From IMG/VR virus record IMGVR_UViG_3300048496_000015: 64,000 nucleotides of DNA; one strand, given 5' to 3'. A program made the translations under genes and the position numbers. The notes beneath the pieces are model-generated. The model did no database searches and was not told the DNA's origin. It was given only the letters and a program-made list of their open reading frames with translations. This DNA is from a virus (Duplodnaviria > Heunggongvirae > Uroviricota > Caudoviricetes). Positions 910-45,700 of the stretch are shown in pieces (within the stretch, counting starts at the first letter, position 1; each line of letters opens with the position of its first letter).

Positions 910-931
910 AATAATAAAATACGTAGAGTTA

Positions 932-1069
932 TTTCTCTACAATCCCCCAATATTCAGTGTTGTATCGTTCCAACCACATCGAACTGCTTTGATGTTTCCT
1001 ATTAAATAGGCAAACAGCGTTCCAGTGAGGCTCCCACATTTCTTCAATAGCAACTATCTTAAAGTTCAC
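932..1069 (-). CDS. small protein (45 aa) of the N-terminal NFKIVA family, GTG start
   Basis: (GTG)NFKIVAIEEMWEPHWNAVC...; GTG overlaps the TGA of upstream gene 1066-1272 (GTGA). Confidence 0.4.
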
Positions 1070-4258: not shown

Positions 4259-4261
4259 TAT

Positions 4262-17670: not shown

Positions 17671-17908
17671 ACTTATTCTTCCTCATCTTGCGTTTCGGTA
17701 AGAGATTGTGTTTGGCTAGAATTAGGTCGCTGAGCCGATATTCAGAGTCGACATACTTATCCCATACTTCAACAAAGCTTGCTGCTGCTCGCAAGCCCGC
17801 ATCCCATGCTTCACGATCTCGAAGGATTGGATGTTGGTCCTTCTTGGCCTTCTCATCCTTCTGCCATTCGAGAAAAGCAACGGGGACGGTCCAAATGGGT
17901 TCAGTCAT
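17594..17908 (-). CDS. hypothetical protein
   Basis: 104-aa track ORF; Arg/Ser-rich tail looks out-of-frame. Confidence 0.4.
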   Translation of the reverse strand: MTEPIWTVPVAFLEWQKDEKAKKDQHPILRDREAWDAGLRAAASFVEVWDKYVDSEYRLSDLILAKHNLLPKRKMRKNKYESPRGRKGSRSRRSRGRGKSNRTH

Positions 17909-18043
17909 AATCTTCTTCGTGAAGATGCATCCACACTCGTGCCATCAAGAAATTCATCCTCACATCAGGATTATCGCTGATGCGATATGGAATCTCATCT
18001 ACAAGATTAGAGCGTGACTTAGGTGCTACGATTTTGAAATTCA
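17901..18043 (-). CDS. small protein of the N-terminal MNFKIVAP family
   Basis: MNFKIVAPKSRSNLVDEIPYRIS...; the track extends it to 18125 because no upstream in-frame stop exists. Confidence 0.4.
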
Positions 18044-18150
18044 TGACTCTCAACTCAAAATCCCCGCCACAACCACCATAGTTGTGACGACGAGGGCAAT
18101 CACCATCAAGATTCTTGCATCCCATGGTCGCTCAGTTTGACACTTCATTA

Positions 18151-21023: not shown

Positions 21024-21311
21024 TTACGTTAGAAACTTGTTAATCATATCCATGGCTTTTTCAAAAAACCTGGGATCGGAAATATGGAGGTTGACGGGCT
21101 CCTTCTTGCGCGAAGTCACAATGACTGTTCCAGGTTTGTACTTCCAGTGACGGAAGTAGAGCACCATCTCATCAGGACCGTGATTCACATGTCGTTTAGA
21201 CATGAGACTCAACTTCCTTCCATCAAGGGTCAAGGTCGCTCCACAACCCTTAGGGATCATGCGCCACAGAGCGTCAGCCGCTATGTGGATCAAATCAGGC
21301 TCTTTTGTCAT
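21024..21311 (-). CDS. small protein of the DPxFF family
   Basis: ...LHISDPRFFEKAMDMI. Confidence 0.55.
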   Translation of the reverse strand: MTKEPDLIHIAADALWRMIPKGCGATLTLDGRKLSLMSKRHVNHGPDEMVLYFRHWKYKPGTVIVTSRKKEPVNLHISDPRFFEKAMDMINKFLT

Positions 21312-22617: not shown

Positions 22618-22619
22618 TA

Positions 22620-22850
22620 CTAACTCTCCTCCACATGTCTGCGTAGTTTACGCTTAACTTGCTTACGCGTTGGTTTCGATCCTATCCAAAGGATCGTCGG
22701 GTCTTCATCCTCTAGCGGAGCTGGAGGTTTAACACCAGGATAGATCCTGCTCAGGTAGCCGAGTTTGGCGTGCTTAACCCTGCCCTTCTCGAGCAGATCG
22801 GCAACTTCGGTTCCCAACCCACAGGATCCTTCGAAGTAAAAAGCGAACAT
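22620..22850 (-). CDS. hypothetical protein
   Basis: 76-aa track ORF. Confidence 0.45.
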   Translation of the reverse strand: MFAFYFEGSCGLGTEVADLLEKGRVKHAKLGYLSRIYPGVKPPAPLEDEDPTILWIGSKPTRKQVKRKLRRHVEES

Positions 22851-22867
22851 CTCTCCTCCAATTGCTC

Positions 22868-23380
22868 TTAGTGACTGGCTCGTTGCAGAGCACGTTTAAT
22901 CTCCTCAACGGAGATCTCGTGTGTCTTTTGAGCCAAGATTCGTTCAATGTTGGCAGTGTGATCTTGATCGGGGTCACCACAACTCTGGAGATGCTCAAGG
23001 AACTGATCTGTAAATCTGCGCATCCTCATCTTGATGTTAGCAAGAACCTTTTGAGCGATCTCGTAATTCCCCTCAAGAGCAGTTGCTATTTCCTTGAGAT
23101 GAATTTCCTCCACGTATTCGTCGGCAGCACCTTGCGTTAAAATGATGTCGGGATCTCGATGAGCCTCAGGGTTATTCCAAAAGGCGTCCGCCATTTCGCG
23201 AACCAGTCGCGAGGAGGCTGTCTTGTGGTGAATGTTACTCACCACAGTTTCAGCGATGTCGTCAAAATCGTCCAGCATATTTGGTCTCCAGTGTGGTACA
23301 TTATTTCTGCTCACCGGCAAGCCGGTGACGGGTAGCTCCGTGCTCTCCTCAGTGCGGAGTCCACAGTATCTACCCGCCAC
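22868..23380 (-). CDS. hypothetical protein
   Basis: 170-aa track ORF. Confidence 0.5.
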   Translation of the reverse strand: MAGRYCGLRTEESTELPVTGLPVSRNNVPHWRPNMLDDFDDIAETVVSNIHHKTASSRLVREMADAFWNNPEAHRDPDIILTQGAADEYVEEIHLKEIATALEGNYEIAQKVLANIKMRMRRFTDQFLEHLQSCGDPDQDHTANIERILAQKTHEISVEEIKRALQRASH

Positions 23381-23394
23381 CGGCTCATATTCGT

Positions 23395-24753
23395 TTAGCT
23401 CCCGTAAGAGACCTTCGACATGAGCTTCTGCAGCTCGGGGCGAGCGCTGATGGCAGCGATCCAGGAATTGGTCTTATCGGGCTTGTACCGAGCGGCCATC
23501 TTGGCGAGATGGACGTTGGAAAGCACCGCACCACCGAGGTTGACCGTTTCCTTCTCGACCAGAGTGCGGCCGAGCATGACCGCGAGGTCGCGCTCTGCGC
23601 GCTTGGCCACCAACTCCATGAAGTCCAGCGTGTTGGTGATCAGCTTCTCCCGATCCTTACCCTTCACACCCTTGGTGTCCGCGAAGCGGTCCTTCGCGTG
23701 GGAGGCCACGCCCCAGACCAGACCGACCATCTGGTTCCGGTTGAAGCCCTTGAGCTTCGCGTCGATGGCCTTGAGACCCTTGTCCAGCACGTCACCCGGG
23801 GTGACTTCGACGCTGAACCGCTCGAACGCGTTGGCGAGATCGCGACCCACGATCCCGGCGAGGACTTCGCGGATTGCTTCCTTCGGATAGTTGCGGCGCT
23901 CGACCTCTTGAGCCACGCGGCCTACGAATTCCCAAGAGCGCGGGGACGACATGACAGTGAAACCGAGGTCACCGTCGATCTTGCCCATCAAGTTGTTCTT
24001 GTCGTAGGTCACGAACTGCAGGACCTTGTCGCCGACAGGACCCTTGAGCTTCTGAGTCATGTAATCCGACCAGTCGGCCACATAACCCTCGTCCACCGAG
24101 ACGACCACGTGGCAGAACCTGTCGAGGAACGCCGGGTCGTTAAAGGTGTTGACGTTGTAACCGGTCTGGTAGTTTCCAGCGCAGGTCACACTCCAGCCCG
24201 AAGGCATGGTGTACCGACCGAGCTGACGGTCCAGAACCAGCTGGAAGCAGGCCTGAAGCACGTCGTCGTCGGCGCGGTTGAGCTCGTCCAGGAAGAGGAT
24301 TCCTTCGTGGAGGATGATGACGATTCCGTCATCCTTATCCGTCTTGGGCTGGTTCTTGTGACCATTCGGACAAACCGTGGGGATCTCCTTGGTGAGGGCA
24401 TAACTGCCGTTCTCACCGAAGGTTCCGTGCCAACGGCCTCGAGGCCCGTTCTTCACAGGCGCGTCGGCGCATTCCAAACAGAGGAACTCTCCGTGCGGGA
24501 GATCCTCAGGCGGGCAGTAAATCGTGAGGCCGTTCTGTCGGTCGGGGAGACCGCGCAGATCGGACGATTCGATCTGACTGGCACGGAAATCCACAAACCC
24601 CCAAGGCCGCTTCGTGCCCGAATGCTTCGGGGCCTCTTGACACAGCTGCCTTACGAGGGAGCTCTTACCCAAGCCTCGGTGGCCCCACATGAACATGGCC
24701 ACACCGGAATTGCGACAGAGCCGAGTCGCATGCTTGGTCATCGTAACGTTCAT
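23395..24753 (-). CDS. MoxR-family AAA+ ATPase with a zinc-ribbon insertion
   Basis: Walker A GHRGLGKSSL; Walker B LFLDELNRA; CPPEDLPHGEFLCLEC insertion. Confidence 0.85.
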   Translation of the reverse strand: MNVTMTKHATRLCRNSGVAMFMWGHRGLGKSSLVRQLCQEAPKHSGTKRPWGFVDFRASQIESSDLRGLPDRQNGLTIYCPPEDLPHGEFLCLECADAPVKNGPRGRWHGTFGENGSYALTKEIPTVCPNGHKNQPKTDKDDGIVIILHEGILFLDELNRADDDVLQACFQLVLDRQLGRYTMPSGWSVTCAGNYQTGYNVNTFNDPAFLDRFCHVVVSVDEGYVADWSDYMTQKLKGPVGDKVLQFVTYDKNNLMGKIDGDLGFTVMSSPRSWEFVGRVAQEVERRNYPKEAIREVLAGIVGRDLANAFERFSVEVTPGDVLDKGLKAIDAKLKGFNRNQMVGLVWGVASHAKDRFADTKGVKGKDREKLITNTLDFMELVAKRAERDLAVMLGRTLVEKETVNLGGAVLSNVHLAKMAARYKPDKTNSWIAAISARPELQKLMSKVSYGS

Positions 24754-25010: not shown

Positions 25011-26079
25011 GTTGAACTTTCACACGCAGATATTCATCCTCTTTATCGACTTCAGTCAATTCTGAGCCTTTAAAGATATGAAGACCATCTCTGGTCGAGT
25101 ACCGCTCCGGTTCAGTTTTGTACATGCTGAGATCGAATGGCCTCTTTCTCACTTTCTCCTGCAAGGCTGGTAGCTTCTGCCAGTTAACATAACCTTGGCC
25201 CCCATAGGGGTTAGCTTCCACCGCTCCTTTGACTTTCGACCAGTCGATGATGTAATAATTCTTGACTTTTTTTACCTCATCATCACCAATGAGGACGTAA
25301 TCACGAAGACCAGTTGGGTTCCTGTGACTCCACCCATAGGAAAAGACTAGAATTGGTTTGTAGCTTGGGTTGGCCAGAACCGCCGATTCAATCTTTTCCG
25401 ACTGAGACACGAATCGATAGATCTCATCCCCCACATCCTCGAAGTAAATCATTGAATGCTTCGCATACTCATCGATACCACTAAGGTTGAAGGGACGTTT
25501 CTTGGCGCGGCCTAAGATGAGGGAGGAATGCTGCTTGAGGATGCCGAGAACTCGCGCGGCTTTATTCAGACTGCCTAACTCTCGCTTGAGAGAGTCCCAG
25601 GTCGGATTAGGTAGAAACTTGTCATCGAAGTAATACGGTACCGAGAGGCCGTCAAAACGAACCTTCACATACCTACCGCGTCGGTCCTTATGCACGGAGG
25701 GACCTACAGACAATTTCTCTGTCTTGTAGGTCTTGTCATCCTGGGTTAGTTCGATATACTCCGCATTCCCGCGAAGCCAGTGCAGGGTCTCGGTGAGAGA
25801 GAGATTGATCACCATCTCATGAACAAGATGACCGTCCTGGGGTCTAAGATCCATTCCAATCTTGAGCGGACCAGATATGAGTTCAGGTCCCGAGTCTGCA
25901 ATATAGACGCTATATTGGAAGTTGTAGAATGCATCGGAAATTGATTTCGACGCTTCGAAGTCATGAAGCGGCGTAGTAGCCCTTACGAGCACCGGCTTCG
26001 GATTCGAATCCTTGACCGGATGGGGACCATATACCTTGAATAGACCCCGCTCACCTCGGAGGTTAGAGAATTGTTCCAT
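24988..26079 (-). CDS. hypothetical protein (363 aa)
   Basis: long track ORF. Confidence 0.6.
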   Translation of the reverse strand: MEQFSNLRGERGLFKVYGPHPVKDSNPKPVLVRATTPLHDFEASKSISDAFYNFQYSVYIADSGPELISGPLKIGMDLRPQDGHLVHEMVINLSLTETLHWLRGNAEYIELTQDDKTYKTEKLSVGPSVHKDRRGRYVKVRFDGLSVPYYFDDKFLPNPTWDSLKRELGSLNKAARVLGILKQHSSLILGRAKKRPFNLSGIDEYAKHSMIYFEDVGDEIYRFVSQSEKIESAVLANPSYKPILVFSYGWSHRNPTGLRDYVLIGDDEVKKVKNYYIIDWSKVKGAVEANPYGGQGYVNWQKLPALQEKVRKRPFDLSMYKTEPERYSTRDGLHIFKGSELTEVDKEDEYLRVKVQRACKAKL

Positions 26080-26753
26080 TAGATGATCCTATACTGCTTA
26101 AGGAAGTTGCGTACATCACTGGACATCTTACCGGCAAACTCACGAGGAGTCTTGGCCTTGAACTTCTCATTGAGAACTGCCTGAACGGCGTTGTGGTTGC
26201 TGCCACCACCACCGCGAGTACCGGTCAGATCGAAAATGACGTGGCAACAGTTATGTTGCAGATCATTCAAATGGTCGATAGACTCAATAATGGCCTTGTT
26301 GGACTTCGCCTTCTCAATGGCTAGGAAGGCTTCGCTGATCACAGCCCAAGGCTCGCCACCAAACGCGGACATTGACTTACCCTGCTTGGAGCGGAAAGCA
26401 TCAGCTGCTCCCGCCATCTTGTCCTTGGGTTTATTATGTTCTTTGTGCTCGGACTTGATCAGCTCCATCATGTTGAAGCCGAGCCCCGTTCGCGACATCG
26501 AAGCAGCCTGAGCCTTGATCTGCTCATCCATCTTGCCCTTCATGTCGCGAAGCATGGCTTCGATACTGGCACCGGCTACATCTAGACTCATGTAACCAGC
26601 TTCCTCTATGATGCGCTTCTTGAGCGTCTTAACGTAAGCCTGTTGGATTTCAGTCAGATAGAAACTGAAGAGATTCTTACCCTCCTCATCTAGGGTTTTC
26701 TCGTCAATGACGGAGAGGCCGTAGAAGTCGTATACATCACTTACTTTCAGCAT
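26079..26753 (-). CDS. hypothetical protein, intact paralogue of 18151-18915
   Basis: start trimmed to MLKVSDVYDFYG; has Q (CAA) where the paralogue has TAG. Confidence 0.6.
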   Translation of the reverse strand: MLKVSDVYDFYGLSVIDEKTLDEEGKNLFSFYLTEIQQAYVKTLKKRIIEEAGYMSLDVAGASIEAMLRDMKGKMDEQIKAQAASMSRTGLGFNMMELIKSEHKEHNKPKDKMAGAADAFRSKQGKSMSAFGGEPWAVISEAFLAIEKAKSNKAIIESIDHLNDLQHNCCHVIFDLTGTRGGGGSNHNAVQAVLNEKFKAKTPREFAGKMSSDVRNFLKQYRII

Positions 26754-26994
26754 CTTTCTTCTTCCTTCCGAACAGGTCTTCACGGATTTCTTTGAGTCCC
26801 GCCAGCTTATCTCCAAGCTCTTGAGCTGATTTGAGTCCAGCCGCTACCTTTCGCCACCTTGCTCGCTCGCCCCGGTAGCGCTTAAGAAAAGCAACAGCTC
26901 GACTTAGAAGGAGGGTCTCGGCATTCTCCATGCCGTCTTTGAGGCCGATGAGGCCCTCAATGACCTCGTCTATTTCTTTTTCTTTCACGTTCAT
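26737..26994 (-). CDS. hypothetical protein
   Basis: 85-aa track ORF. Confidence 0.4.
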   Translation of the reverse strand: MNVKEKEIDEVIEGLIGLKDGMENAETLLLSRAVAFLKRYRGERARWRKVAAGLKSAQELGDKLAGLKEIREDLFGRKKKDAESK

Positions 26995-27238
26995 GCTCCT
27001 CCATAGCGTCAGCCATTTTAGGTCCTGTAATTCCTAAGATCTCTAACCCCCAAATGGGCTCCATCTTACGAAACTTGGGGCTTGTCTTCTCAAGAAGAAG
27101 ACGGTCGAGTTTCGCTTGACCGCGACACTCTGCTTCCTTCCAACGATTCCCTAATCTAAGGAAAGGTTGGCGTCCTCGAGCCTCGAAATTCGCAGCATAA
27201 CTGGGGGCCACGATCTTGAAATTAGGCTCCTGCATCAT
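26957..27238 (-). CDS. small protein of the N-terminal NFKIVAP family
   Basis: MMQEPNFKIVAPSYAANFE... Confidence 0.5.
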   Translation of the reverse strand: MMQEPNFKIVAPSYAANFEARGRQPFLRLGNRWKEAECRGQAKLDRLLLEKTSPKFRKMEPIWGLEILGITGPKMADAMEEHERERKRNRRGH

Positions 27239-27923
27239 CCAGCTTCTTGAAGATCCGATCTCTCAGATCTCGGGCAACTGCCGCTCGACGGACGTCGTGA
27301 GACTCGTCAGCGTCATATTCTCCATGCTTGTAAAGCCGGTTTAGGTTCCGACCGGAAAACGCCATACGGACTTTGCCCGCTTCCTTCTTGTCCATGATGT
27401 GGAAGATACCCTCGATGGCACGTCCCGACATCTCAGCAAAATCCATGCGCACTTTCTCGTTCATCTCCCCGGGTTTGAAGACCTCTCCGTAGTGACGGAG
27501 AGCTTCACCCAGAACCTCGGACTCTTCTAGGTTCACGAAGAGGGAGACCAAGGAGTTAACAGCGGGCATTACGGGCTCCGCCCCAGGAATGATGATCTTA
27601 GGAGTCGAGGGGACCGCAGCCGGAGCCGCAGTTGGCACAGGAGCAGGGGCCACAGGCGGCGGCTTGACACCCATCCGCTCGGCCATCTCCTCGAAGGAGA
27701 AGATGTTCTTACCAGTTTTGGTCTGCCACTTCTCGTCGGCAGCCTTCGGGTCTTTCTCGTCGTAGCCCGGTTCATCCTTAGTAGAAGTCCGGATGACAAC
27801 CTCGCGGCTACAATTACAGGTAATGTGCCGCTCGATCATCTTCTTTCCATTCTCTTCGATTTCCGCGCAGGGCCAATCGAAGATTCGGTGGTTGATACCA
27901 CACGTGCAGAAGATCTTCATCAC
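27222..27923 (-). CDS. hypothetical protein with N-terminal Cys cluster and Pro/Ala-rich linker
   Basis: 233-aa track ORF. Confidence 0.55.
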   Translation of the reverse strand: MMKIFCTCGINHRIFDWPCAEIEENGKKMIERHITCNCSREVVIRTSTKDEPGYDEKDPKAADEKWQTKTGKNIFSFEEMAERMGVKPPPVAPAPVPTAAPAAVPSTPKIIIPGAEPVMPAVNSLVSLFVNLEESEVLGEALRHYGEVFKPGEMNEKVRMDFAEMSGRAIEGIFHIMDKKEAGKVRMAFSGRNLNRLYKHGEYDADESHDVRRAAVARDLRDRIFKKLDDAGA

Positions 27924-28432
27924 TCCTCCATATTGAGTCTAATTTGACTCACGTAGGTTAGAACAGCAGAATCCGCCCGACAATGATCCGGAATTTTACT
28001 CAGTAAGGTTTCAGTGTTTGAACGATAACCTTTTGTGAATTTCACGGGCTTAAGCTTGAAATCTCGCGTATTATCACATCGATCAGCGAGTTTAAGTAAG
28101 ACGCCATCTCGCGATAGCCGAGCAAAACGCGCGAAGTATTCAGCCTCTTTTTCAGCCTTAGGGAGAGACTTAACCTTAGTCACTCCCATGACCAGCTCAG
28201 TCATGTCGCTCCCGAAGTAGAGTCGGATTGTACCGGAAGTAACATCGGTGTCTTCAATCACATCATGAAGTACACCTGCAGTCGCCAACTTAATATTGCC
28301 GGTACGAGCAAAGAGATCATCCGCAACCCGTAAAGGGTGGAGGATATAAGGTTCGTCAACGAACTTGCGACGTTGTCCATCGTGGGCCTTGGTCGCAAGG
28401 AGGATTGCTCTATTGTAGTTCTGAAGCCACAT
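27920..28432 (-). CDS. HD-domain (p)ppGpp/alarmone hydrolase (RelA/SpoT hydrolase-type, SAH-like)
   Basis: ATKAHDGQRRK...PYILHPLRVA...AGVLHDVIEDT...LLKLADRCDNTRD. Confidence 0.8.
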   Translation of the reverse strand: MWLQNYNRAILLATKAHDGQRRKFVDEPYILHPLRVADDLFARTGNIKLATAGVLHDVIEDTDVTSGTIRLYFGSDMTELVMGVTKVKSLPKAEKEAEYFARFARLSRDGVLLKLADRCDNTRDFKLKPVKFTKGYRSNTETLLSKIPDHCRADSAVLTYVSQIRLNMEE

Positions 28433-28958
28433 GTTTTTCTACCTTATTAAGAAGGGCTCGGATTTTCTTATGATCCTCATTGTGATAGGAGATCTTACGC
28501 TCCGTTGCCTCTATATTGTCCTTAATCATCCTAACCAACAATTCTTCGAGCTTCTCGCCCACCTTCTCGTGGTTATGTAAGGGGATAAAGATTTCGAGAT
28601 GTCCCCTGCCAAACGTTAGACCTCCCTTAAGGGCGTTGTGGCGGGCCGCATATATCTGATCTAGGTGACCAATAGTCACACAAATTCTTCGATGATCTTG
28701 ATCATTGGAGAATAGCTCATGTGTCAGAACTCGTGCGCCGATCTTATCGAGCCTGCGCTCACGCCAGACTTTCTGGATATAGTCAGCCACAACCCGTTTT
28801 TGTCCTTCCGAGTTGTAATGTTTCGTACAGAGTAAGTCTCCCGAAAGCTTCTTCAAGCAACGACTATGATAGTGACCATCAGCACCGCACTTCTCACAGA
28901 TGGCAAACCGGTTGTTATAGATTAGACCTTTACATTTATCGCAGAAAGTCTTAGTCAT
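28410..28958 (-). CDS. zinc-finger protein, member D of the 'ADYxKKxW' family
   Basis: start trimmed to MTKTFCDKCKG by analogy with members A-C; VVADYIQKVW...ICVTIGHL core. Confidence 0.6.
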   Translation of the reverse strand: MTKTFCDKCKGLIYNNRFAICEKCGADGHYHSRCLKKLSGDLLCTKHYNSEGQKRVVADYIQKVWRERRLDKIGARVLTHELFSNDQDHRRICVTIGHLDQIYAARHNALKGGLTFGRGHLEIFIPLHNHEKVGEKLEELLVRMIKDNIEATERKISYHNEDHKKIRALLNKVEKHVASELQ

Positions 28959-29205
28959 CGCTCCATCTTCCACTCGCGTGCGGTTCTCCCTTACCATAAC
29001 CACGGGGATCGAGACGGTTGATTTCCTTAAATTGGCCCTCATCCATGATCTCGATCTCGCCTGCCGTCTTGTGACCGTAAGCCATCCGTCCTTTTTTCAT
29101 CGGGACGTCTCCGTCCGCGATTACACATGGAACGCAGGTTCTCGCGTTAGGGAGGGCTTCCAGGCGCTCAGCGGAGATTAGCTTACCGCAACGTTCACAA
29201 CTCAT
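28951..29205 (-). CDS. TraR/DksA-family C4 zinc-finger protein
   Basis: CERCGKLISAERLEALPNARTCVPC. Confidence 0.8.
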   Translation of the reverse strand: MSCERCGKLISAERLEALPNARTCVPCVIADGDVPMKKGRMAYGHKTAGEIEIMDEGQFKEINRLDPRGYGKGEPHASGRWSDD

Positions 29206-29333
29206 TCATCCTCCTCTAATTCTTCATATTCCTCTTCGTCTTCTTCAACTTCTTCGTCGTCGTACCAGCCAAATTGTTCTCGCCAATCATTTTGGAAGAG
29301 AGCAATTTTGAGTGCAATTCTTTTGAAGTTCAC
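29205..29333 (-). CDS. small acidic protein (42 aa), GTG start, NFK N-terminus
   Basis: (GTG)NFKRIALKIALFQNDW...EEDEEEYEELEEDE; ATGA overlap with traR-like gene. Confidence 0.3.
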
Positions 29334-29605
29334 GTTCTCTGTCGCTTTCCGTTGAGTGTGTACCACTGACCTTCGCTCCAAGCGCCTAGGATCTCTTCAA
29401 TGACTGATTTCTTAGCAGAAAGAGTCACCCGATAAAGACTCTTACCAACTTTATCACATGTTAGGATCTTGAATTCGCCTCTGGCGAGGGCCACGCCTAG
29501 GTTAGGATCCTTGAGCATATAACGCATCGCTTGTTTGCGTGCGGAGGGCGTGATTGCATCGTCAAGATCCGGCCAACCTCCATGTTGTCTATATGAGAGT
29601 CTCAT
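29330..29605 (-). CDS. hypothetical protein
   Basis: track ORF trimmed to ATG 29605 (MRLSYRQHGGW); ATGA overlap upstream. Confidence 0.5.
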   Translation of the reverse strand: MRLSYRQHGGWPDLDDAITPSARKQAMRYMLKDPNLGVALARGEFKILTCDKVGKSLYRVTLSAKKSVIEEILGAWSEGQWYTLNGKRQRT

Positions 29606-29721
29606 GGACGAATTCCTCCTGGAGGGGGATTCCAATAACTACTGCATTCATAACAGCAGTTACATTCAGGGTTCTCCTGGCAGAGATCCATATCGCTATG
29701 AGCGATGATTGTGAAGTTCAA
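29602..29721 (-). CDS. small Cys-rich protein (38 aa), TTG start, NFTII N-terminus
   Basis: (TTG)NFTIIAHSDMDLCQENPECNCCYEC...; coupled overlaps on both sides. Confidence 0.3.
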   Translation of the reverse strand: MNFTIIAHSDMDLCQENPECNCCYECSSYWNPPPGGIRP

Positions 29722-29867
29722 AATTCGTCATCCTCATTACACGATCTACAATCACAGATTACATCCGAGATAAAGTAGCCAGAAGGATTACAATCGATGC
29801 AATCGCATTGCTTTTCATGGGGGACTTTATCAAGCGCCTCTTCGGGAGCAATGATTGTGAAGTTCAT
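29718..29867 (-). CDS. small Cys-rich protein (49 aa) of the MNFTIIAP variant
   Basis: MNFTIIAPEEALDKVPHEKQCDCIDCNPSGY... Confidence 0.4.
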   Translation of the reverse strand: MNFTIIAPEEALDKVPHEKQCDCIDCNPSGYFISDVICDCRSCNEDDEF

Positions 29868-30031
29868 GATTCTCTAATACAGCCTTCACACTGGCAGCGG
29901 ACGCTAGAAAGATCACCGCAGATTTCATAACCCTGCTCAGCTACCCAATGTTCACAGCGACCGCACTCCCATGCGGGAGTGCCCTGCTTCTCTGCCTTGA
30001 ACATCTCGGACCCACAGTACTTACAAAGCAT
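29864..30031 (-). CDS. small zinc-ribbon protein (55 aa)
   Basis: MLCKYCGSEMF...WECGRCEHW...; TAATG upstream, ATGA downstream. Confidence 0.4.
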   Translation of the reverse strand: MLCKYCGSEMFKAEKQGTPAWECGRCEHWVAEQGYEICGDLSSVRCQCEGCIRES

Positions 30032-30423
30032 TATTCGGCTCCCTTCTTCTCTTTCTTAAGATACTTCGACTTCATGTTCTTCGTGCGCTCAACAATCAGC
30101 GCCGCGATTCGATCAATGAGATCAGGAACAGCTAGAGGAATGACCTCAAATTCCTGATGCCCGTACCCGTACTTCCTTCCCCTCGCCTGGAACTTGAGTT
30201 TCTCTCCTTCCACATGGACTTCGCTGATAAGAGAACTCATGGGAGAGGGCCACCGGAAAGATAATCTACTCCCTCTATAAGTGACATACCCTGTGCTGAC
30301 CGCAACCGCAACCTCGTTTGGATCAATACCAGCCTTCTTAAAGGCTTCTAGGAAGGTCTCACTGAGAATCATCATCAGTAACAGAATACCATTTCTTCTG
30401 AACGTAGAAGTCACCAACATCAA
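30031..30423 (-). CDS. hypothetical protein, paralogue of 19547-19942
   Basis: AFKKAGIDPNEV, EGEKLKFQARGRKYG and NMKSKYLKKEKKG are shared. Confidence 0.55.
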   Translation of the reverse strand: MMLVTSTFRRNGILLLMMILSETFLEAFKKAGIDPNEVAVAVSTGYVTYRGSRLSFRWPSPMSSLISEVHVEGEKLKFQARGRKYGYGHQEFEVIPLAVPDLIDRIAALIVERTKNMKSKYLKKEKKGAE

Positions 30424-30432
30424 CTGAGGATC

Positions 30433-30909
30433 TCATTTAACACCCTTCGTCGCGGCCCACTTCCGTATCAGCTTTTGCGTTTTCTTCCGTTCTCTCTTTG
30501 CCTTATCGGTTTCAACTAGTTCCCGCAACTTTTTGTCATAGACATCTTTCTTCTTGAGACTCTTAACAAGCTTGGTGTCAGTCTCGAACAGCGTTCTTAA
30601 AAGACCAAGAAGGTCAGATGTCGGTTCAGCAATGTTCATGTAATAAACCCATCCATCTTTATTCGTTGACAGGTCTTGCTTGCGCGAGAAGATGACCTCA
30701 ACCTCATTTTGAACGAACACGTGGATTGCAGGGATAAAGTATCCTCCCCGAATCTGGAGATGAGGTTGGATATAAGGTGTCGAACCGCCGTACAAGGACA
30801 CCTTAAATCCCTCGTTAATGAGCCACACCTTTAGTTGGCCTAGCGTGGCAACTTTCTCTTGATGGGTCATTTCGCAAACTGACGCTTGGCCAGCTCCTCC
30901 TTGTACCAC
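30433..30909 (-). CDS. hypothetical protein
   Basis: 158-aa track ORF. Confidence 0.55.
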   Translation of the reverse strand: MVQGGAGQASVCEMTHQEKVATLGQLKVWLINEGFKVSLYGGSTPYIQPHLQIRGGYFIPAIHVFVQNEVEVIFSRKQDLSTNKDGWVYYMNIAEPTSDLLGLLRTLFETDTKLVKSLKKKDVYDKKLRELVETDKAKRERKKTQKLIRKWAATKGVK

Positions 30910-31838
30910 TCAGGAAGGCCAGCAGTCGCTCCACGCAAGATCTTGGGAAGCGCCCACTTTAGAAGCGCCTCAGCGATGGGCGAGTTGGGACCCTTCGCCT
31001 CTTCCTCAGTGAGATCCTTGTGGACTTCCTTGATAAGCTTGCCGATGTCCTTCGGAGCATTTTCAAGCTCACCACGTTCCTCGAGGTGCATTACTGCCTT
31101 GCTCCAGCGAGCAGGGGTTTGATACGACATGATGAGCTTCTGAAGGATATCACCCTGCTTGGGGTTGGATTCCTTCCACTCGACCCCGTGCTTCTCCTTG
31201 AACTCCTCGCTGACGAACTTCCCCATCATGGCCTTGCCATCCGAACCAAAACGGTTGTAGTTCTTGACGACAACACCTTCGATCTTCTCTTCGCCTAGGA
31301 CACTCATGGTCTCGTCCACGAGCTTCCGGAAGACGTCGTAGTTATCGATCTTGCCACGGAAGAAACAAGGGACGCACTCGAGGCCGATCCGATCGGCTTC
31401 AGCCTTCTTCTCTTCGGGAGAGAGATACTGCTCGTACGAGGGGCTGATATCGAAGATGATCAGATGGTCTTTGGGGACCCGGCCGTAAGCCCGAGTGTGA
31501 TGCTTGGGCTTCGACAGGTATTCTGCCCGGTAGGTCCAGCCCAGCTTGAGATTGGGTTGAAGCTTTAGGATGGTTTCTACCGCCTTGATGAAGAGCTTCT
31601 CAGGGGCAATCAGGTTGATCTGGGCACCCTTCGAACGGGCACGCAGCTCGGGACCCTCACCAAAATCGAAGACACCAAAGCTGAATTGGGACCCGTCCAC
31701 TTTCTCTTCGAGGATCACTTCCTCCAGGAAAAGCTCTGTGATCGCATGGTGACCCAGAGCGTGGATCTTCGTGTATGAATGATACGACGTTGCGGTTACA
31801 GGCTTCTTTGCAACCAGGGGCTTCTCTTCAGGAACCAT
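30867..31838 (-). CDS. Rnl2-family RNA ligase (covalent nucleotidyltransferase)
   Basis: motif I EEKVDGSQFSF (KxDG), motif IV EGVVVKN, motif V region; start trimmed to MVPEEKP. Confidence 0.75.
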   Translation of the reverse strand: MVPEEKPLVAKKPVTATSYHSYTKIHALGHHAITELFLEEVILEEKVDGSQFSFGVFDFGEGPELRARSKGAQINLIAPEKLFIKAVETILKLQPNLKLGWTYRAEYLSKPKHHTRAYGRVPKDHLIIFDISPSYEQYLSPEEKKAEADRIGLECVPCFFRGKIDNYDVFRKLVDETMSVLGEEKIEGVVVKNYNRFGSDGKAMMGKFVSEEFKEKHGVEWKESNPKQGDILQKLIMSYQTPARWSKAVMHLEERGELENAPKDIGKLIKEVHKDLTEEEAKGPNSPIAEALLKWALPKILRGATAGLPEWYKEELAKRQFAK

Positions 31839-32181
31839 TCTTTCCCTCACAATCTTTACAGCAGCACTTGATACATACGCATTCGCTACCACCACATGGA
31901 GTAGTGCAATGCTTATGACTACAACCACATGTCTCGTAATCGGAGAAGGGAAGTATCGACGCTAACTGCTTCCTTTCTCGATCATAGACAACCTTGAGCA
32001 TCTGCTTTTCATGCTCAACCAGGAAGATGGAAACCCGGTGGGAGTCTTTATGGTAGAATCTCGCATCTCCCACACGGATCTTGTCCACGATACGACACTG
32101 GTCCTCCTCTCTGAGGACCAGCCCAAATCGCTGGAAGGCACGCCGTTGAGCGTGCAACCGCTGAGATTTATCTTTCTTCAT
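31828..32181 (-). CDS. hypothetical protein with C-terminal Cys cluster
   Basis: 117-aa track ORF. Confidence 0.5.
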   Translation of the reverse strand: MKKDKSQRLHAQRRAFQRFGLVLREEDQCRIVDKIRVGDARFYHKDSHRVSIFLVEHEKQMLKVVYDRERKQLASILPFSDYETCGCSHKHCTTPCGGSECVCIKCCCKDCEGKNGS

Positions 32182-32183
32182 GT

Positions 32184-32276
32184 TAATCTCCTACCCCGCC
32201 GAAGCCGAGACTGAGGTACCACCGATAGTAAGTTATGTTACGTCTCCTCGCCGGTGGCGCTATAATCTTGAAATTC
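32184..32276 (-). CDS. micro-ORF (30 aa) with an MNFKIIAPP N-terminus
   Basis: MNFKIIAPPARRRNITYYRWYLSLGFGGVGD; sits exactly between two genes. Confidence 0.3.
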
Positions 32277-32277
32277 A

Positions 32278-32643
32278 TCAAGCCCATGCAAACCTGTGGA
32301 AGGATTCAATCTCCTTTGAGCGGACACATTCATCGCAGATTGGTTTAATAGGTCCATCTGTGTCCTGAAAGACTCCAGTTGCTGTGGCAGCGCAGCGAGA
32401 GCACTCCCACTCTTCGTCCTCTTCCTTCTCCTGAGGGATGAAGCGCTCATCAATCTCGCCCATTGTTTTTTGGATCGCTTTGAACCAGAGAGTCTCGTCG
32501 TGACCCGAGCATCCAAATTCGCTCAAGATCGTCTTGAGATGATCAAACATCTCAAATGCTTTATCGTGGGTCTTGCAACGCTGAATGATGGGGAAAGGCA
32601 TCCCCTGCTCGGGCTCTAAGACTTTACAAGCACACGTAGACAT
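32278..32643 (-). CDS. hypothetical Cys-rich protein
   Basis: 121-aa track ORF. Confidence 0.5.
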   Translation of the reverse strand: MSTCACKVLEPEQGMPFPIIQRCKTHDKAFEMFDHLKTILSEFGCSGHDETLWFKAIQKTMGEIDERFIPQEKEEDEEWECSRCAATATGVFQDTDGPIKPICDECVRSKEIESFHRFAWA

Positions 32644-32893
32644 ATTGCATCCTCCTAATCATGTCAGCGAGATCTTCAAAGAAGTTGGGGTCGGCCATGT
32701 TTAATATACGCGGACGACCTATCCCCATGACTGTGATCTTCGGTAGCTCATCTAGAATGAGCCTACCATGAGCCGAATTATCGATGAGAGATTCGATATA
32801 AAAGACGTCTCCAGCGTCGTTGATCTTGATCGGGGTCCCGCGATATTCCTCTTTCAGCCATTCAACAAGAGCTGTCTCAAAGTCGAGTTTCAT
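32624..32893 (-). CDS. small protein of the DPxFF family
   Basis: ...ILNMADPNFFEDLADMIRRM. Confidence 0.55.
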   Translation of the reverse strand: MKLDFETALVEWLKEEYRGTPIKINDAGDVFYIESLIDNSAHGRLILDELPKITVMGIGRPRILNMADPNFFEDLADMIRRMQYVYVCL

Positions 32894-33093
32894 CGTCTCA
32901 TCCAGGTTCTACCTGTCCAAACGACCCTAGACCACGCATTACAGTGGACCACATGAGGAATACCCTCTTTGTTGACGTGTCTAAAAAACTCAAGTGCTTC
33001 CGGGAATTTAGACGGAGGAGTCGTGTGATCTTTATAGAGAAAGACCTTTCCCAACAAATAGCCCGTGTAAGGGACCAAAATCTTGAAGTTCAT
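32890..33093 (-). CDS. small protein of the MNFKI family
   Basis: MNFKILVPYTGYLLGK...; GAGGAAG SD. Confidence 0.5.
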   Translation of the reverse strand: MNFKILVPYTGYLLGKVFLYKDHTTPPSKFPEALEFFRHVNKEGIPHVVHCNAWSRVVWTGRTWMRR

Positions 33094-33344
33094 TTCTTCC
33101 TCTTTCTGCGTCCTTCAAGGATCTTGATCTGAGCCTCATCGAGAGAGGGGCGGAGGTCCGCAACACGAGCACGAATGTCAATCAACTCGTCCGTCATAGC
33201 ACGAATCTTATCGAGAAGACGAAGGTCCCCACAAATCTTGAGGTTCCCATCACAAGTGTAAGCTGTGGTGCAACAAGCGAATGTTCCTACTCGCTCGTCA
33301 CAGAAATCGCACTTATCCCCGTTTATCATTCCTAAGACGCGCAT
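33090..33344 (-). CDS. hypothetical Cys-rich protein
   Basis: 84-aa track ORF. Confidence 0.5.
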   Translation of the reverse strand: MRVLGMINGDKCDFCDERVGTFACCTTAYTCDGNLKICGDLRLLDKIRAMTDELIDIRARVADLRPSLDEAQIKILEGRRKRKK

Positions 33345-33577
33345 TAGGACACGTGAGATACGTGAACGGCTACTTGGACATATTCAGCAGACCATCTAAC
33401 GCTTCCCTGACTGGCTTGCTTAGCGTTCTCGGGCTCGAACGCTTCGCTCCAGACCTCAGGTCCATTCTCTCCAGGAATGTTGAACGGCGAGTTAGGGAGC
33501 GCCATCAATAAACTGGCGAGTTCGTGCGTATCTTGAACCCCTCTCAGATTCTGATATTGATCTCTCGAGATTTCCAT
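33344..33577 (-). CDS. hypothetical protein
   Basis: 77-aa track ORF. Confidence 0.45.
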   Translation of the reverse strand: MEISRDQYQNLRGVQDTHELASLLMALPNSPFNIPGENGPEVWSEAFEPENAKQASQGSVRWSAEYVQVAVHVSHVS

Positions 33578-33587
33578 TTGATCCTCC

Positions 33588-33920
33588 TTAGTGATGGGGG
33601 TCCCACTTCATCATCTTATCAATGTGACGCTTGAGCTTCGCGAACATGTGAGGATCGGTGATACTCACTTCTTTCCTCGCGAAGCACCCTCGAGACCTTC
33701 GTGCCAATGGATGAGAGTAGATGATTTTCATTTGATCTCCCTCACCTTGAAGATTGAAAACCGTATACCAGATGAAAGGATCAAACTTGATATCCTTCGG
33801 GATCAGTTTGAGTTGAGGACCAATCTGACCATCCTCTTCAGCTCGGAGAGTGTAAACATCAATAGCTGGATACCTATCTCGTATCCAATACCTGATTATT
33901 TCGATGCCAGTGATAGTCAT
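33588..33920 (-). CDS. small protein of the DPxFF family
   Basis: IIRYWIRDRY...SITDPHMFAKLKRHI. Confidence 0.55.
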   Translation of the reverse strand: MTITGIEIIRYWIRDRYPAIDVYTLRAEEDGQIGPQLKLIPKDIKFDPFIWYTVFNLQGEGDQMKIIYSHPLARRSRGCFARKEVSITDPHMFAKLKRHIDKMMKWDPHH

Positions 33921-34048
33921 TTCTTCTCCTTGAACTTCTGGATGATCTCAACCATCAAGCAGATGTAAAGGGTTAAGGCTGTCCCTTCCACACCGAAGGT
34001 CAGGAGACCTAATCCGATAAGGAATAAAAAGAGAAGGAAATTTCTCAT
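33917..34048 (-). CDS. small hydrophobic peptide (43 aa)
   Basis: MRNFLLFLFLIGLGLLTFGVEG...; ATGA overlaps at both ends. Confidence 0.35.
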   Translation of the reverse strand: MRNFLLFLFLIGLGLLTFGVEGTALTLYICLMVEIIQKFKEKK

Positions 34049-34245
34049 TTTACCTCAGGTAAAACCTCAGGACCCCAATCTAGATCATAGTCTAGATTCC
34101 AATGCCAATCGGAATAATGACCTTGGGGCCGTTGGCACCGGATAGGCTTATTGTCTGGAGTCAATGCAGACCAACAAGCATTTTCACAAAGAACCTCTTT
34201 ATAGGCAGCATTTGGGGCGAAGATCTTAAATTTTTCTGAACTCAT
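34045..34245 (-). CDS. small protein, NFKI-family variant (KFKIFAP)
   Basis: MSSEKFKIFAPNAAYKEV... Confidence 0.45.
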   Translation of the reverse strand: MSSEKFKIFAPNAAYKEVLCENACWSALTPDNKPIRCQRPQGHYSDWHWNLDYDLDWGPEVLPEVK

Positions 34246-34556
34246 TCACCCGCCGCTTCTACCGTAGCAGACATAGAACCTGCACAACGTGGGATCCTTG
34301 GGTCTCGCCCGTAAGCGTGGACCTTATCTCTCTTGAATTCAGCATATTCAAGAGCGCCCGAATATACAATCACCTTTCCGGTCGCATCGACCTCAACTGC
34401 CATCCTGAATGCCTTCTCCTTGGAGTGACCGAAGACCACTCCAAGCATTTCGATCACATACTCGTATGTGTGATCATCATCATTCCACAGGATAACGTTG
34501 TAAGGAGGCTGTGTCTTGACATCCTCCTTGACTTCATCTTTTACTTCTGTCGACAT
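34242..34556 (-). CDS. clpS: ClpS, Clp protease N-degron adaptor (copy 1)
   Basis: YNVILWNDDDHTYEYVIEMLGVVFGHSKEKAFRMAVEVDATGKVIVYSGALEYAEFKRDKV. Confidence 0.85.
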   Translation of the reverse strand: MSTEVKDEVKEDVKTQPPYNVILWNDDDHTYEYVIEMLGVVFGHSKEKAFRMAVEVDATGKVIVYSGALEYAEFKRDKVHAYGRDPRIPRCAGSMSATVEAAGE

Positions 34557-34783
34557 TACTTCTTCTCCCGTGTGGTACGTTCGGTGAATTGAGACATCTT
34601 ATCGAGACTTCCGAGGTCATCAAATTTTGTGTCAAGTAATTTGACATCATTAATCTCGGCTGCACCAAATTCTCGCAGATAGTCGAGGAAATCTTCCTCA
34701 CGCTCATCACCGAGAGGTACGGCATAAGTGATGCAATAAACAAGTGTCTTGCCGAGTTTCTCACAGGCCTTTTTGCGGTCCAT
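34556..34783 (-). CDS. hypothetical protein
   Basis: 75-aa track ORF. Confidence 0.45.
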   Translation of the reverse strand: MDRKKACEKLGKTLVYCITYAVPLGDEREEDFLDYLREFGAAEINDVKLLDTKFDDLGSLDKMSQFTERTTREKK

Positions 34784-34983
34784 CAGAGTCCTTTCATCTC
34801 TTCAAGGATGTCTTTCCAGTCTTTTCCAGTTCGAGTAGCTATATCCTTAATACGGAGGAGACCTTCTTTAAGAGAACAATCATAACAAAGAATATGACTT
34901 ATTGGATGCAATCGTGGTTTCGCCTTGCAAGTCAAGCAAGGCACTGCAGCTATCGGCGCAGTCATTTTGAAGTTCCCGAGCAT
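34783..34983 (-). CDS. small Cys-containing protein, NFKI-family variant (NFKMTAP)
   Basis: MLGNFKMTAPIAAVPCLTCK... Confidence 0.45.
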   Translation of the reverse strand: MLGNFKMTAPIAAVPCLTCKAKPRLHPISHILCYDCSLKEGLLRIKDIATRTGKDWKDILEEMKGL

Positions 34984-35142
34984 CTACCTCACCAATCCCA
35001 CGTACACGAGATCCCTCGACTTCGACTTCTTCGATCCATCCACGCTCGTCTCCGTCACGGTGACTTGACGGCCCTTTCGGGTCTTCATCTTCCTCCGGAC
35101 GCCGTGCTTCGCGTCGGTCCTGGAGTAGAAACCGTGAACCAT
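34984..35142 (-). CDS. small basic protein (52 aa)
   Basis: MVHGFYSRTDAKHGVRRKMKTRKGRQV...; fills the gap between two genes. Confidence 0.3.
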   Translation of the reverse strand: MVHGFYSRTDAKHGVRRKMKTRKGRQVTVTETSVDGSKKSKSRDLVYVGLVR

Positions 35143-35143
35143 C

Positions 35144-35488
35144 TTACTGTTGCTGCGCCGCATCGTTTTCCTCCTTGTAAGCTTCCGTATCCAACTGGTT
35201 TAAGCGAGCATTATTTCTCTCTACCCAGAGATTGAATTCTGGTCTTTCTTGAAGGGTAGTGAGAATCTCCATTGTCTTGGGCTCATCAAGCTGCCCTGGC
35301 AGAACATAGAGCTTCCAGATCCTTTTAAAACGTTTGAACCCCTCCAGATCTCTCACCGCATCATGCTCATATGCGGCGAGTATCTTCATCCGATCGATGC
35401 CGAGGATCTTGAAGTTGCTCCTACTCTCCATTCTTCTCCGCCTTGAGCTCCGAGTCGGCCCTGCTCCATCCATCAATTTCGGTTCCAT
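35144..35488 (-). CDS. hypothetical protein, NFKI family, tandem paralogue of 35573-35806
   Basis: ...SNFKILGIDRMKILAAYEHDAVRDLEGFKRF. Confidence 0.55.
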   Translation of the reverse strand: MEPKLMDGAGPTRSSRRRRMESRSNFKILGIDRMKILAAYEHDAVRDLEGFKRFKRIWKLYVLPGQLDEPKTMEILTTLQERPEFNLWVERNNARLNQLDTEAYKEENDAAQQQ

Positions 35489-35572
35489 CCGCTTTATCGG
35501 TGGCCTCTTGTTCGGAGTCGGCCTCGACCTCGATTGAGTAATAGACGCTATAACTCACAGTCCATTTGGGCT

Positions 35573-35806
35573 TCACAAGCTCTTCTCTTTCTTCTGATCT
35601 TCTCGAGAGAGATCTACAACGGTAAATCCATTCCGGCCCCACCACGAGCCGTAACGAAGACCGTAAACTTCGTGCATCTTCTTTCCGTCACAATGTGCGT
35701 TAAAAAACTTTTTGAGCCTTTGAAACCAAGCAATATCCTTAACTGCATCGTGTTCAAATCGTTCCAACTCCCTCATTCGATCGATGCCGACTATCTTGAA
35801 ATTCAT
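35573..35806 (-). CDS. hypothetical protein, NFKI family
   Basis: MNFKIVGIDRMRELERFEHDAVKDIAWFQRL. Confidence 0.55.
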   Translation of the reverse strand: MNFKIVGIDRMRELERFEHDAVKDIAWFQRLKKFFNAHCDGKKMHEVYGLRYGSWWGRNGFTVVDLSREDQKKEKSL

Positions 35807-35952
35807 CTTCCACTCGAGTAGAGACTACCGGTCACTGCCATGGCCAAGAACCCGATCAGCGAAAGCGGCCAGATAGCCATCAGCCCGATACATTTCCAAT
35901 CGACACGTCTCCCGCGTTTAGGACCCCAGAAGGCCGTTAGCCCGAGTAACAT
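35804..35952 (-). CDS. small membrane peptide (49 aa)
   Basis: MLLGLTAFWGPKRGRRVDWKCIGLMAIWPLSLIGFLAMAV...; ATGA overlap with MNFKIVGID gene. Confidence 0.35.
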
Positions 35953-36227: not shown

Positions 36228-36527
36228 TTAATCCTCCGGCTCAATAGAGAAGGTCAGAGGGAATTTATTCATTCGGGCTATCGCGTGAGCCTTCTCTACA
36301 TGGAATTCAGCTCGTTCGAGAGGTTCCACCACAACCAGGGCTACTTGCTTCGAGTGAGCCTCGAGCATGATCCGCGTAGATTCCGCGAGATCCTTATTGA
36401 AGACTTTGGATAGAACCAGAACTACGAAATCCATCGGAGTCTTCGGATCATCGTGGATGAGTACCCGATACATCTTGATGTATCCGGTACGCGTTTTAGT
36501 CTCCTGAATGGTATCCGTATCAGACAC
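36228..36527 (-). CDS. clpS: ClpS-like adaptor (copy 2)
   Basis: YRVLIHDDPKTPMDFVVLVLSKVFNKDLAESTRIMLEAHSKQVALVVVEPLERAEFHVEKA. Confidence 0.8.
   Translation of the reverse strand: MSDTDTIQETKTRTGYIKMYRVLIHDDPKTPMDFVVLVLSKVFNKDLAESTRIMLEAHSKQVALVVVEPLERAEFHVEKAHAIARMNKFPLTFSIEPED

Positions 36528-45623: not shown

Positions 45624-45700
<77 letters not shown>

Follow-up and report, generated by a model that had tools for sequence, protein, structure and literature searches.

We have found that a peptide of only seven residues, N-F-K-I-[IVL]-A-P, usually preceded by the initial Met, heads a set of very small and for the most part otherwise unlike proteins of a tailed phage (Caudoviricetes) known from metagenomic sequence. 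The whole stretch of 64,000 nucleotides analyzed, hereafter the window (IMG/VR record IMGVR_UViG_3300048496_000015), is part of a 384,188-bp metagenomic contig (JGI 3300060479 Ga0589155_0000001) and carries 12 open reading frames (ORFs), all on the minus strand, in which this leader stands at the start or within the first 2-12 residues. In total 25 members of 20-95 amino acids (aa) are known in three phages. Selection acts on the leader peptide. Since purifying selection holds these seven residues across 25 micro-proteins that are otherwise unrelated and quickly replaced, we consider that the leader is probably an autonomous recognition tag. The leading hypothesis for its function, a tentative one that draws on the T4-type capsid gene found in the lineage and on a small size suiting injected cargo, is that the leader may be a packaging tag working like the capsid targeting sequence (CTS) of phage T4, loading the micro-proteins into a T4-type prohead.

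Leader-bearing genes and the level of selection

The window members are 31-95 aa long; ten of them lie between 26957 and 35806 and the other two at 929-1069 and 17901-18044 (Table 1). A first-pass annotation, made by a model from the sequence alone, had listed twelve ORFs sharing the N-terminal motif, and all twelve were found again on the minus strand with the motif near the start, although the range given there for the family (26957-35952) holds only ten. Most of its start positions were kept. Two moved slightly (18043 to ATG 18044, 32276 to ATG 32278), and in place of 35488 the start is more likely ATG 35431, as indicated by a 95-aa JGI gene call and by the start of the orthologue P0122 in a close relative (see below). 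The GTG (1069, 29333) and TTG (29721) starts that it had proposed stood up as well, because each of them overlaps, as NTGA, the stop of a real upstream ORF. Actually, for 8 of the 12 members the start overlaps the preceding stop as NTGA or TGATG, seven of these eight being NTGA overlaps with a real upstream ORF, all three non-ATG starts included. In four members, 2-4 extra residues separate the Met from the motif. Most were called as genes by JGI, and all 12 extend at least 23 codons beyond the motif, the chance expectation being ca. 1/3 for each. An in-frame codon-usage signal was detected in 11 of the 12 tails, at a level like that of other small ORFs (stop codons in the other frames bias this test). 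The member at 32183..32278 fills exactly the gap between the stop of a 121-aa gene (32278-32643) and the ATG of the next ORF at 32181.

A chance origin of the motif was ruled out. A slightly widened version of the regular expression suggested in the first-pass annotation, run on the six-frame translation, gave 11 matches, with 0.01 expected from 100 first-order Markov simulations and 0.015 from 200 residue shuffles, so that the frequency is not equalled in shuffled translations, a comparison that the annotation had itself proposed; its own pattern gave nine matches in the window, all on the coding strand. The matches to the looser pattern were likewise all on the coding strand and all adjacent to a start, except one at 11824, inside an SPFH protein, that we have taken as chance. 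The composition over the 25 members is N in 24, F in all 25, K/R in 21, I in 22, a hydrophobic residue in 24, A in 18 and P in 11, with Met immediately preceding the motif in 21.

To see where the constraint sits, the codon positions of 21 aligned members from two phages were analyzed. The first and second positions of the N, F, K and I codons carry up to 2 bits each, while the third positions hold only the information imposed by the code (ca. 1 bit for Y/R, 0.1-0.3 bit at fully degenerate sites). The leader makes use of every Ala and every Pro codon (four each) and of the three Ile codons, and the G+C content at the third positions of the core codons (ca. 47%) equals that of the genome. Upstream, each of the positions -30 to -4 has less than 0.5 bit, the sole signal being a weak, purine-rich one of ribosome binding. 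A DNA repeat finder saw the motif only as families of 14-26 nt with 69-88% identity, the longer repeats (27 and 43 nt) being two neighbouring member pairs that are also alike past the leader. The synonymous variation of the codons, the lack of conservation before the ATG and the placing of the constraint on the peptide and not on a DNA or RNA site, all three put forward from the first reading, are thus borne out by the free third positions, the low upstream information and repeats limited to about 20 coding nucleotides. An element acting at the DNA or RNA level was rejected on the same evidence: three-base periodicity, free third positions, no upstream conservation and no longer repeats.

Past the leader the proteins are Cys-rich, helical, acidic or beta-rich, with isoelectric points from 4 to 11.6. 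The claim that these remainders are unrelated holds for most of the members, with two exceptions: after trimming the leader the members starting at 35431 and 35806 are significantly similar (39% identity, the only such case), and the neighbours starting at 29721 and 29867 look like paralogues by eye. A sub-family present in all three phages has Trp at motif position 11, after a hydrophobic residue at position 10. That the proteins belong to no described family was also upheld, ten members giving no match at E < 0.01 in Pfam-A and PHROGs. A HMMER profile of the 35431/35806 pair searched against 1.84 billion representative proteins found only those two proteins (35431 being represented there by a ca. 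85%-identical orthologue from a relative). The 77-aa member alone as a query retrieved only itself, and all the members concatenated as a single query gave no match in a large protein search. No Sec, Tat or lipoprotein signal was detected among 21 members, the longest hydrophobic run in the first 30 aa being five residues or fewer and RR being absent from any signal context, and the reading of the leader as a signal peptide was discarded for these reasons. AlphaFold2 models of two members were of low confidence (predicted local distance difference test, pLDDT, 56.9 and 44.9), the leader being a low-confidence coil in both. In the model of 32890..33093 residues 1-8 are below 50, though the whole model is weak.

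Table 1. Leader-bearing genes of the window, with the two ClpS genes given as context (their inclusion does not imply membership). Strand -, minus.
Position	Strand	Feature	Start and neighbourhood
929..1069	-	Member, 46 aa, (M)NFKIVAIEEMWEPHW...	GTG start; GTGA overlap with stop of 72-codon upstream ORF
17901..18044	-	Member, 47 aa, MNFKIVAPKSRS...	ATG at 18044; frame open back to TTG 18125
26957..27238	-	Member, 93 aa, MMQEP-NFKIVAPSYAA...	Leader offset +4 residues; JGI 93-aa gene call
29202..29333	-	Member, 43 aa, (M)NFKRIALKIALF..., poly-acidic tail	GTG start; GTGA overlap with stop of 102-codon upstream ORF
29602..29721	-	Member, 39 aa, (M)NFTIIAHSDMDLCQENPECNCCYEC, Cys-rich	TTG start; TTGA overlap with stop of preceding member
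29718..29867	-	Member, 49 aa, MNFTIIAPEEALDKVPHEKQCDCIDC..., Cys-rich	
32183..32278	-	Member, 31 aa, MNFKIIAPPARRRNITYY...	ATG 32278; alternative ATG 32287
32890..33093	-	Member, 67 aa, MNFKILVPYTGYLLGK...	JGI gene call; ATGA overlap with upstream stop
34045..34245	-	Member, 66 aa, MSSE-KFKIFAPNAAY...	ATGA overlap with stop of first ClpS gene
34242..34556	-	ClpS homologue 1, 104 aa (context)	PF02617, 5.9e-20
34783..34983	-	Member, 66 aa, MLG-NFKMTAPIAAVPCLTC..., CxxC...CxxC	
35144..35431	-	Member, 95 aa, MESRS-NFKILGIDRM...	JGI gene call
35573..35806	-	Member, 77 aa, MNFKIVGIDRMRELERFEHDAV..., paralogue of 35431 member	
36228..36527	-	ClpS homologue 2, 99 aa (context)	PF02617, 2e-22

Occurrence among related phages

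Two more members, MNFIIIAKHAVW... and MNFRIVATIIHW..., are found just beyond the window on the same contig; the other contigs bearing the window leader genes were all more than 99.99% identical to it. A second phage, IMGVR_UViG_3300048496_000010 (loci L002, L026 and L095; 46% G+C), has nine members within 6 kb. Two of these have leader-bearing counterparts in the window: L002_362 (MNFKIIACAEMW) is 75% identical over the N-terminal 12 aa to the member at 929..1069, and MNFKIIAL...CDCIMC corresponds to the member at 29718..29867, which is 38% identical over 39 aa to L026_8292 (MNFKIIALFPMFEFGGHASNCDCIMC). The third is a close relative of the window phage, L090, a 5.3-kb ENA contig with ca. 70-82% DNA identity. 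Its orthologue of the 35431 member, P0122, is ca. 84-85% identical and begins directly with MNFRILGIDRM; the window copy has lost the P0122-type ATG and uses an ATG four codons upstream. L090 has no separate counterpart of the 35806 member, its sole match being the orthologue of 35431, and the slot of the 34983 member is taken by a different gene (MSEVFKFGIQP...). An additional member, MNFRVVAPWMVF..., is present in L090. Besides, a 2OG-Fe(II) oxygenase gene (194 aa) and a 78-aa gene are inserted in this contig (3706-4523) right after the orthologue of the second ClpS gene, where nothing is found in the window, a further sign of fast gene turnover in the region.

A more distant but syntenic relative, L085, with 46 genes in 21 kb, has no leader genes. 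Identity to the window is 30-63% for its core genes, those for the CCA enzyme, RNA ligase, ClpS and HD domain protein among them, and no leader gene of the window has a counterpart there, the member at 26957..27238 being missing from the syntenic slot. As judged from these gene orders, the leader genes occupy variable slots between conserved core genes and differ among relatives, with a fast turnover. L085 was the one true relative recovered in the search for homologues of the RNA ligase; the unrelated phages that it also gave (L087-L089) were without leader genes. A conserved 233-aa neighbour used as query found no relatives in IMG/VR. A 245-aa core protein (26079-26816) had a single match among GenBank phages, 34% identity over 83 aa, in a 595-kb uncultured huge phage (L093; LR756511.1, 402625-442867) without leader genes in the 40 kb examined.

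We have also searched with the capsid gene of the second phage, obtaining 80 IMG/VR loci (1.06 Mb), two of them with the 100%-identical gene and 78 with genes at 74-85%. Start-adjacent matches to the motif numbered nine in L095 and one in the other 79 loci. No other leader families were detected in these 80 related loci, the recurrent N-terminal 4-mers being all internal tandem repeats. Scanning with the pattern gave single, mostly chance-level matches in IMG/VR apart from one contig, only single matches in 241 million metagenome records, and only single matches, with no multi-match locus, in 185,579 species genomes. These three scans rule out that the leader is a general N-terminus of phage or bacterial proteins. 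Because nothing beyond single matches came from them, and the leader is absent from L085 and from the capsid loci, the family is by all appearances confined to a narrow phage lineage and not general among phages.

Genome setting

The window phage is a huge phage, and the genes of the window fit an accessory region. There are ca. 166 minus-strand ORFs with a median of 89 aa and 96% of the sequence is coding. About 7% of the genes bear the leader, the remaining N-termini being ordinary and unrelated to one another. Among the contents are an RNA ligase, a CCA-adding enzyme, a tRNA-Met, an AAA_33 kinase-like protein and a SpoU methylase, together with a Pol-beta-like nucleotidyltransferase, ligase-like proteins, the SPFH protein, two ClpS homologues and a MoxR-like ATPase paired with a DUF2201 metallopeptidase/VWA protein. 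The RNA repair and modification set (30867-31928, 41848-43227, 45624-45700, 12196-12711 and 13008-13547, all minus strand) comprises the RNA ligase, the CCA-adding enzyme with its HD domain, the tRNA-Met, the AAA_33 kinase-like protein and the SpoU methylase; the RNA ligase is ca. 55-64% identical to thousands of homologues. At 21379-24753 (minus strand) the MoxR-like AAA ATPase (452 aa) adjoins the DUF2201 putative metallopeptidase with a VWA-like domain (412 aa), which is the sole peptidase-like gene among the window proteins scanned and a conceivable candidate for a processor of the leader. A 350-aa protein (59104-60156, minus strand) matches DUF4419 at E = 7e-73, unusually strong for a region rich in ORFans, suggesting that the gene was acquired from a cellular genome recently. 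Neither the window nor L095 contains the T4 late-promoter consensus TATAAATA, and sigma-70-like sites were at chance level only.

There is a second multi-copy family of ca. 90-125 aa, with a helix-like N-terminal start (I-x-x-W) and a C-terminal D-P-x-F-F-[EK]-K-L. Many copies are found in all three phage lineages: in the window at 32624-32893, 33588-33920, 12713-13018, 21024-21311, 45266-45619, 53818-54171 and 44475-44744 (all minus strand), in L026 at 101-418, 2046-2369, 3045-3392, 3700-4032 and 4232-4609, in L002 at 1601-1879 and in L085 at 13022-13363. The one copy tested (33588-33920) had no Pfam match. As for the assembly, at position 30376 two bases (GG) are missing from the window but present in the JGI and Logan contigs L003 and L004, which are identical to it apart from this; the difference falls within a 130-aa ORF (30031-30423), and the frame of this ORF thus varies by assembly.

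What the leader may do

The T4 CTS is the peptide MKTYQEFIAE. The internal proteins of T-even phages are diverse anti-defence proteins that share only their CTS, which loads them on the scaffolding core (PMC3012670, PMC5694885); it is found in T4 IPI, IPII, IPIII and Alt (Mullaney and Black, 1996, as reviewed in PMC3012670 and PMC5694885). This is best read as the only well-documented phage precedent for the anatomy described here, and we tentatively take a CTS-type system as the best analogue for the function of the leader. By this analogy, the leader would hand the whole set of tagged micro-proteins to one common partner, the likeliest being the scaffolding core of a T4-type prohead, and the micro-proteins would be packed into the capsid and injected with the DNA. 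In both cases a short N-terminal peptide is the sole feature common to diverse, fast-evolving small phage proteins whose genes occupy variable slots in a large myovirus-type genome, with a gp23-type capsid gene beside a scaffold-like gene (in our lineage, as seen in the second phage), and with a leader portable to foreign sequence. The second phage has a T4 gp23-type major capsid gene (PF07068 Gp23, 6.6e-81; phrog_138), and its leader genes follow on the same strand, starting 3.2 kb downstream. The gene immediately upstream of the capsid gene, at the place taken in T4 by the scaffold gene, encodes a 258-aa coiled-coil, scaffold-like protein, and the capsid protein has an I-L-E-D ahead of its conserved core that resembles the T4 maturation site. 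One 42-aa member of this phage, MNFIIIAPSKDK-FEFWGSSILDAGYFYAPYIPLMNVPTMVFK (L026_5368; L026 5240-5368, minus strand, equivalent to L095 ca. 20834-20962, plus strand), shares in its tail 69% identity over a 26-aa stretch with residues 443-468 of the capsid protein encoded on the same contig (E = 6e-13), with no further capsid-like sequence nearby. This member could be either a fragment captured from the gene or a peptide that mimics the capsid, and since its tail copies the capsid residues the leader appears joined to foreign sequence, i.e., portable.

Several observations weigh against packaging. In the window the leader genes sit amid genes of RNA repair and nucleotide metabolism and not amid head genes; the head genes of the window phage lie beyond the 84 kb read, the gp23-type capsid being known from the second phage. 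The 79 other capsid-gene loci of the clade are free of such a leader up to 10 kb from the capsid gene, and because of this absence the tag is not a general need of this head type. The aligned leaders have no sequence similarity to the CTS and none of its acidic or amphipathic E-x-x-x-E pattern, and they are shorter (7-8 aa, compared with 10-20 aa). No site for a prohead protease follows the leader: [LI]xE occurs after it in 10% of the members and 17% of the other window genes, and [SAG]xE in 19% and 17%. The members (20-95 aa) are also smaller than T4 internal proteins and are predicted proteins, all of those found so far being small and none large, and the structure models are too weak to tell whether the leader is a free tail. 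As there is neither a CTS-family sequence nor a Glu-type cleavage site, the claim is that the leader works like a CTS, not that it is one. The T4-type capsid of the lineage and the fast turnover of the gene set make packaging somewhat more plausible, without separating it from degradation.

Other known systems resemble the leader in part. The paralogous ejection proteins gp53 and gp54 of the giant phage SPN3US share an identical 15-residue N-terminus (MANFVKSKLARESVE) at 34% overall identity, which has been proposed to be CTS-like, phiKZ gp93 being grouped with them (PMC5694885). Here too an N-terminus is conserved in spite of divergence and, besides, the SPN3US one contains N-F-V-K, although this N-F-x-K resemblance over four residues may be chance. 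Our micro-proteins lack the AxE/SxE cleavage sites mapped in those proteins, which are large, belong to the head and bear long propeptides. For the packaging of DarB of phage P1 its N-terminal 30 residues are enough (PMC9024508), so that here also an N-terminal peptide sends cargo, in this case an anti-restriction protein, into a myovirus capsid for injection; however, the signal is 30 residues long and stands on a single 250-kDa protein, with no family-wide motif. The precursors of ribosomally synthesized and post-translationally modified peptides (RiPPs) and polymorphic toxins have in common with the leader genes a conserved N-terminal handle, a hypervariable remainder, tandem arrays and some Cys-rich payloads, but the leader is far shorter and its payloads include helical proteins of 70-95 aa. 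Among 60 non-member proteins of the window and L002/L026 scanned against Pfam (not every mid-size ORF) there was no modifying enzyme, recognition element or transporter, and specifically no radical-SAM, Lan-type, YcaO or PqqD-like protein. The RiPP reading was discarded for want of any match to a modifying enzyme or a leader-recognition protein among these 60.

Degradation is an alternative that we consider unlikely. The leader would direct a host AAA+ protease to break the micro-proteins down quickly and at a set time, either as a latent N-degron, where trimming before the Phe might expose F-K-I-V-A to ClpS/ClpAP, perhaps through a phage ClpS, or as an N-terminal ClpX-type signal. The lambda O/Dps class of ClpX signals has the pattern polar-T/hydrophobic-hydrophobic-basic-hydrophobic. 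As in the N-degrons read by ClpS-ClpAP and the N-terminal ClpX signals, a short N-terminal peptide would set the fate of the protein, and ClpS genes adjoin the members: ClpS is rare in phages (tblastn of the first homologue gave one match among 50,697 phage records), and the main cluster contains two ClpS genes, one with a stop that overlaps a member start. From the orthologues of the first homologue in L085 (52% identical) and of the second in L090 (72%), ClpS seems to belong to the core genes of the clade. The Phe is the only invariant residue (25 of 25) and is followed by K/R and bulky hydrophobics, and the variable extension of 0-4 residues ahead of the motif fits an endoproteolytic trim. 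In E. coli, destabilising P2-P5 positions are basic or bulky, with no acidic residue, Pro or Gly, and Phe followed by such residues is an optimal ClpS ligand (PMC12258705); most members read F-K/R-I-[IV]-A, acidic residues being absent and Pro coming no earlier than position six if Phe is numbered one, which fits this pattern.

The Phe, however, is never N-terminal in the primary product, standing at residue 3 to 7 of the predicted proteins. Met-Asn is not known to be a substrate of methionine aminopeptidase, and the latent degron would need a trimming protease, of which none is known. Neither do ClpS and the leader co-vary among relatives: L085 has ClpS and no leader genes in its 21 kb, and in the second phage no ClpS accompanies the nine leader genes over the 18.5 kb searched (L002 and L026), all these loci being parts of genomes. 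Each phage ClpS also departs from the canonical pocket at some residues, whose roles are presumably those seen in the E. coli and Caulobacter structures. The first homologue, aligned to E. coli ClpS, keeps the N-D-D triad and has no equivalents of T38, M40 and H66, and the second, aligned to Caulobacter ClpS, keeps the T-P-M and His equivalents and has D for N34 and P for D36. We know of no precedent for a conserved degron common to a whole gene family. A full phage degradation code, in which a trimmed Phe-Lys-Ile would be read by the two divergent phage ClpS adaptors and host ClpAP would erase early micro-proteins, seems to us highly unlikely.

The leader could also be the active part itself, a short beta-strand epitope binding one host or phage protein, or other members by strand pairing, with the tails tuning it or merely carrying it, and the family being a set of variants, competing or differing in dosage, of a single inhibitor or ligand. 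We give this a low probability. Its beta-strand propensity is high, with a Pro stop after six residues, the post-leader tails vary widely (12-83 aa) and some of them resemble unconstrained sequence, and the second element of the sub-family, the hydrophobic-Trp pair at motif positions 10-11, recurs in all three phages. Nevertheless, the tails exceed chance ORFs (at least 23 codons past the motif in all 12) and carry an in-frame coding signal, and no candidate partner is known. Several have Cys patterns suggesting zinc binding or are conserved between phages, and it is for these two reasons that the tails seem to matter.

The remaining explanations would do without a recognition tag. An A/T-rich, unstructured start or a favourable nascent peptide might boost the initiation or re-initiation of tiny genes in NTGA overlaps. 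The first codons strongly influence protein yield, N, F, K and I are amino acids with A/T at both first codon positions (codons 2-6 read AAY TTY AAR ATH RTH), and 8 of the 12 window members start in an NTGA/TGATG overlap. We find this quite improbable: the synonymous sites have no A/T preference (third-position G+C ca. 47% in the five core codons), not just A/T-richness but a fixed order of residues is kept, conservation extends to the GC-rich Ala-Pro pair behind them and four members have the motif 2-4 codons further in. Moreover, ca. 150 other window genes, as small and as coupled, lack the leader, which does not occur repeatedly within any locus in the three large collections scanned or in the 79 capsid-gene loci. 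Very doubtful, too, is that nothing autonomous is involved, the members being an old paralogous family whose N-terminal strand evolves slowest, or the smallest ORFs not being genes. One significant paralogue pair, another by eye and the cross-phage sub-families speak for it, as do several ORFs of just 20-40 aa and uninformative structure models. Against it, the tails are of different folds (Cys-rich, helical, acidic, beta-rich), one of them is a piece captured from the capsid gene, where the leader is joined to foreign sequence, and a coding density of 96% with precise stop-start coupling argues for real genes. Purifying selection on seven residues over 25 genes with saturated synonymous sites means that the peptide needs a function.

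If the leader is a packaging or sorting tag, its seven residues would be a new and very compact address code in huge T4-like phages. Sequence alone would then flag hidden, probably injected micro-proteins and, among the ORFans, candidate anti-defence or takeover factors, and so short a tag would lend itself to loading large capsids with cargo. If it is a degron read by the phage ClpS, it would represent a new viral use of the N-degron pathway of bacteria; the full degradation code, if true, would be a timed 'erase' switch for takeover proteins and the first virus-encoded N-degron system with dedicated, genome-wide tagged substrates. Under either reading, a sequence rule groups micro-proteins that homology searches fail to connect.

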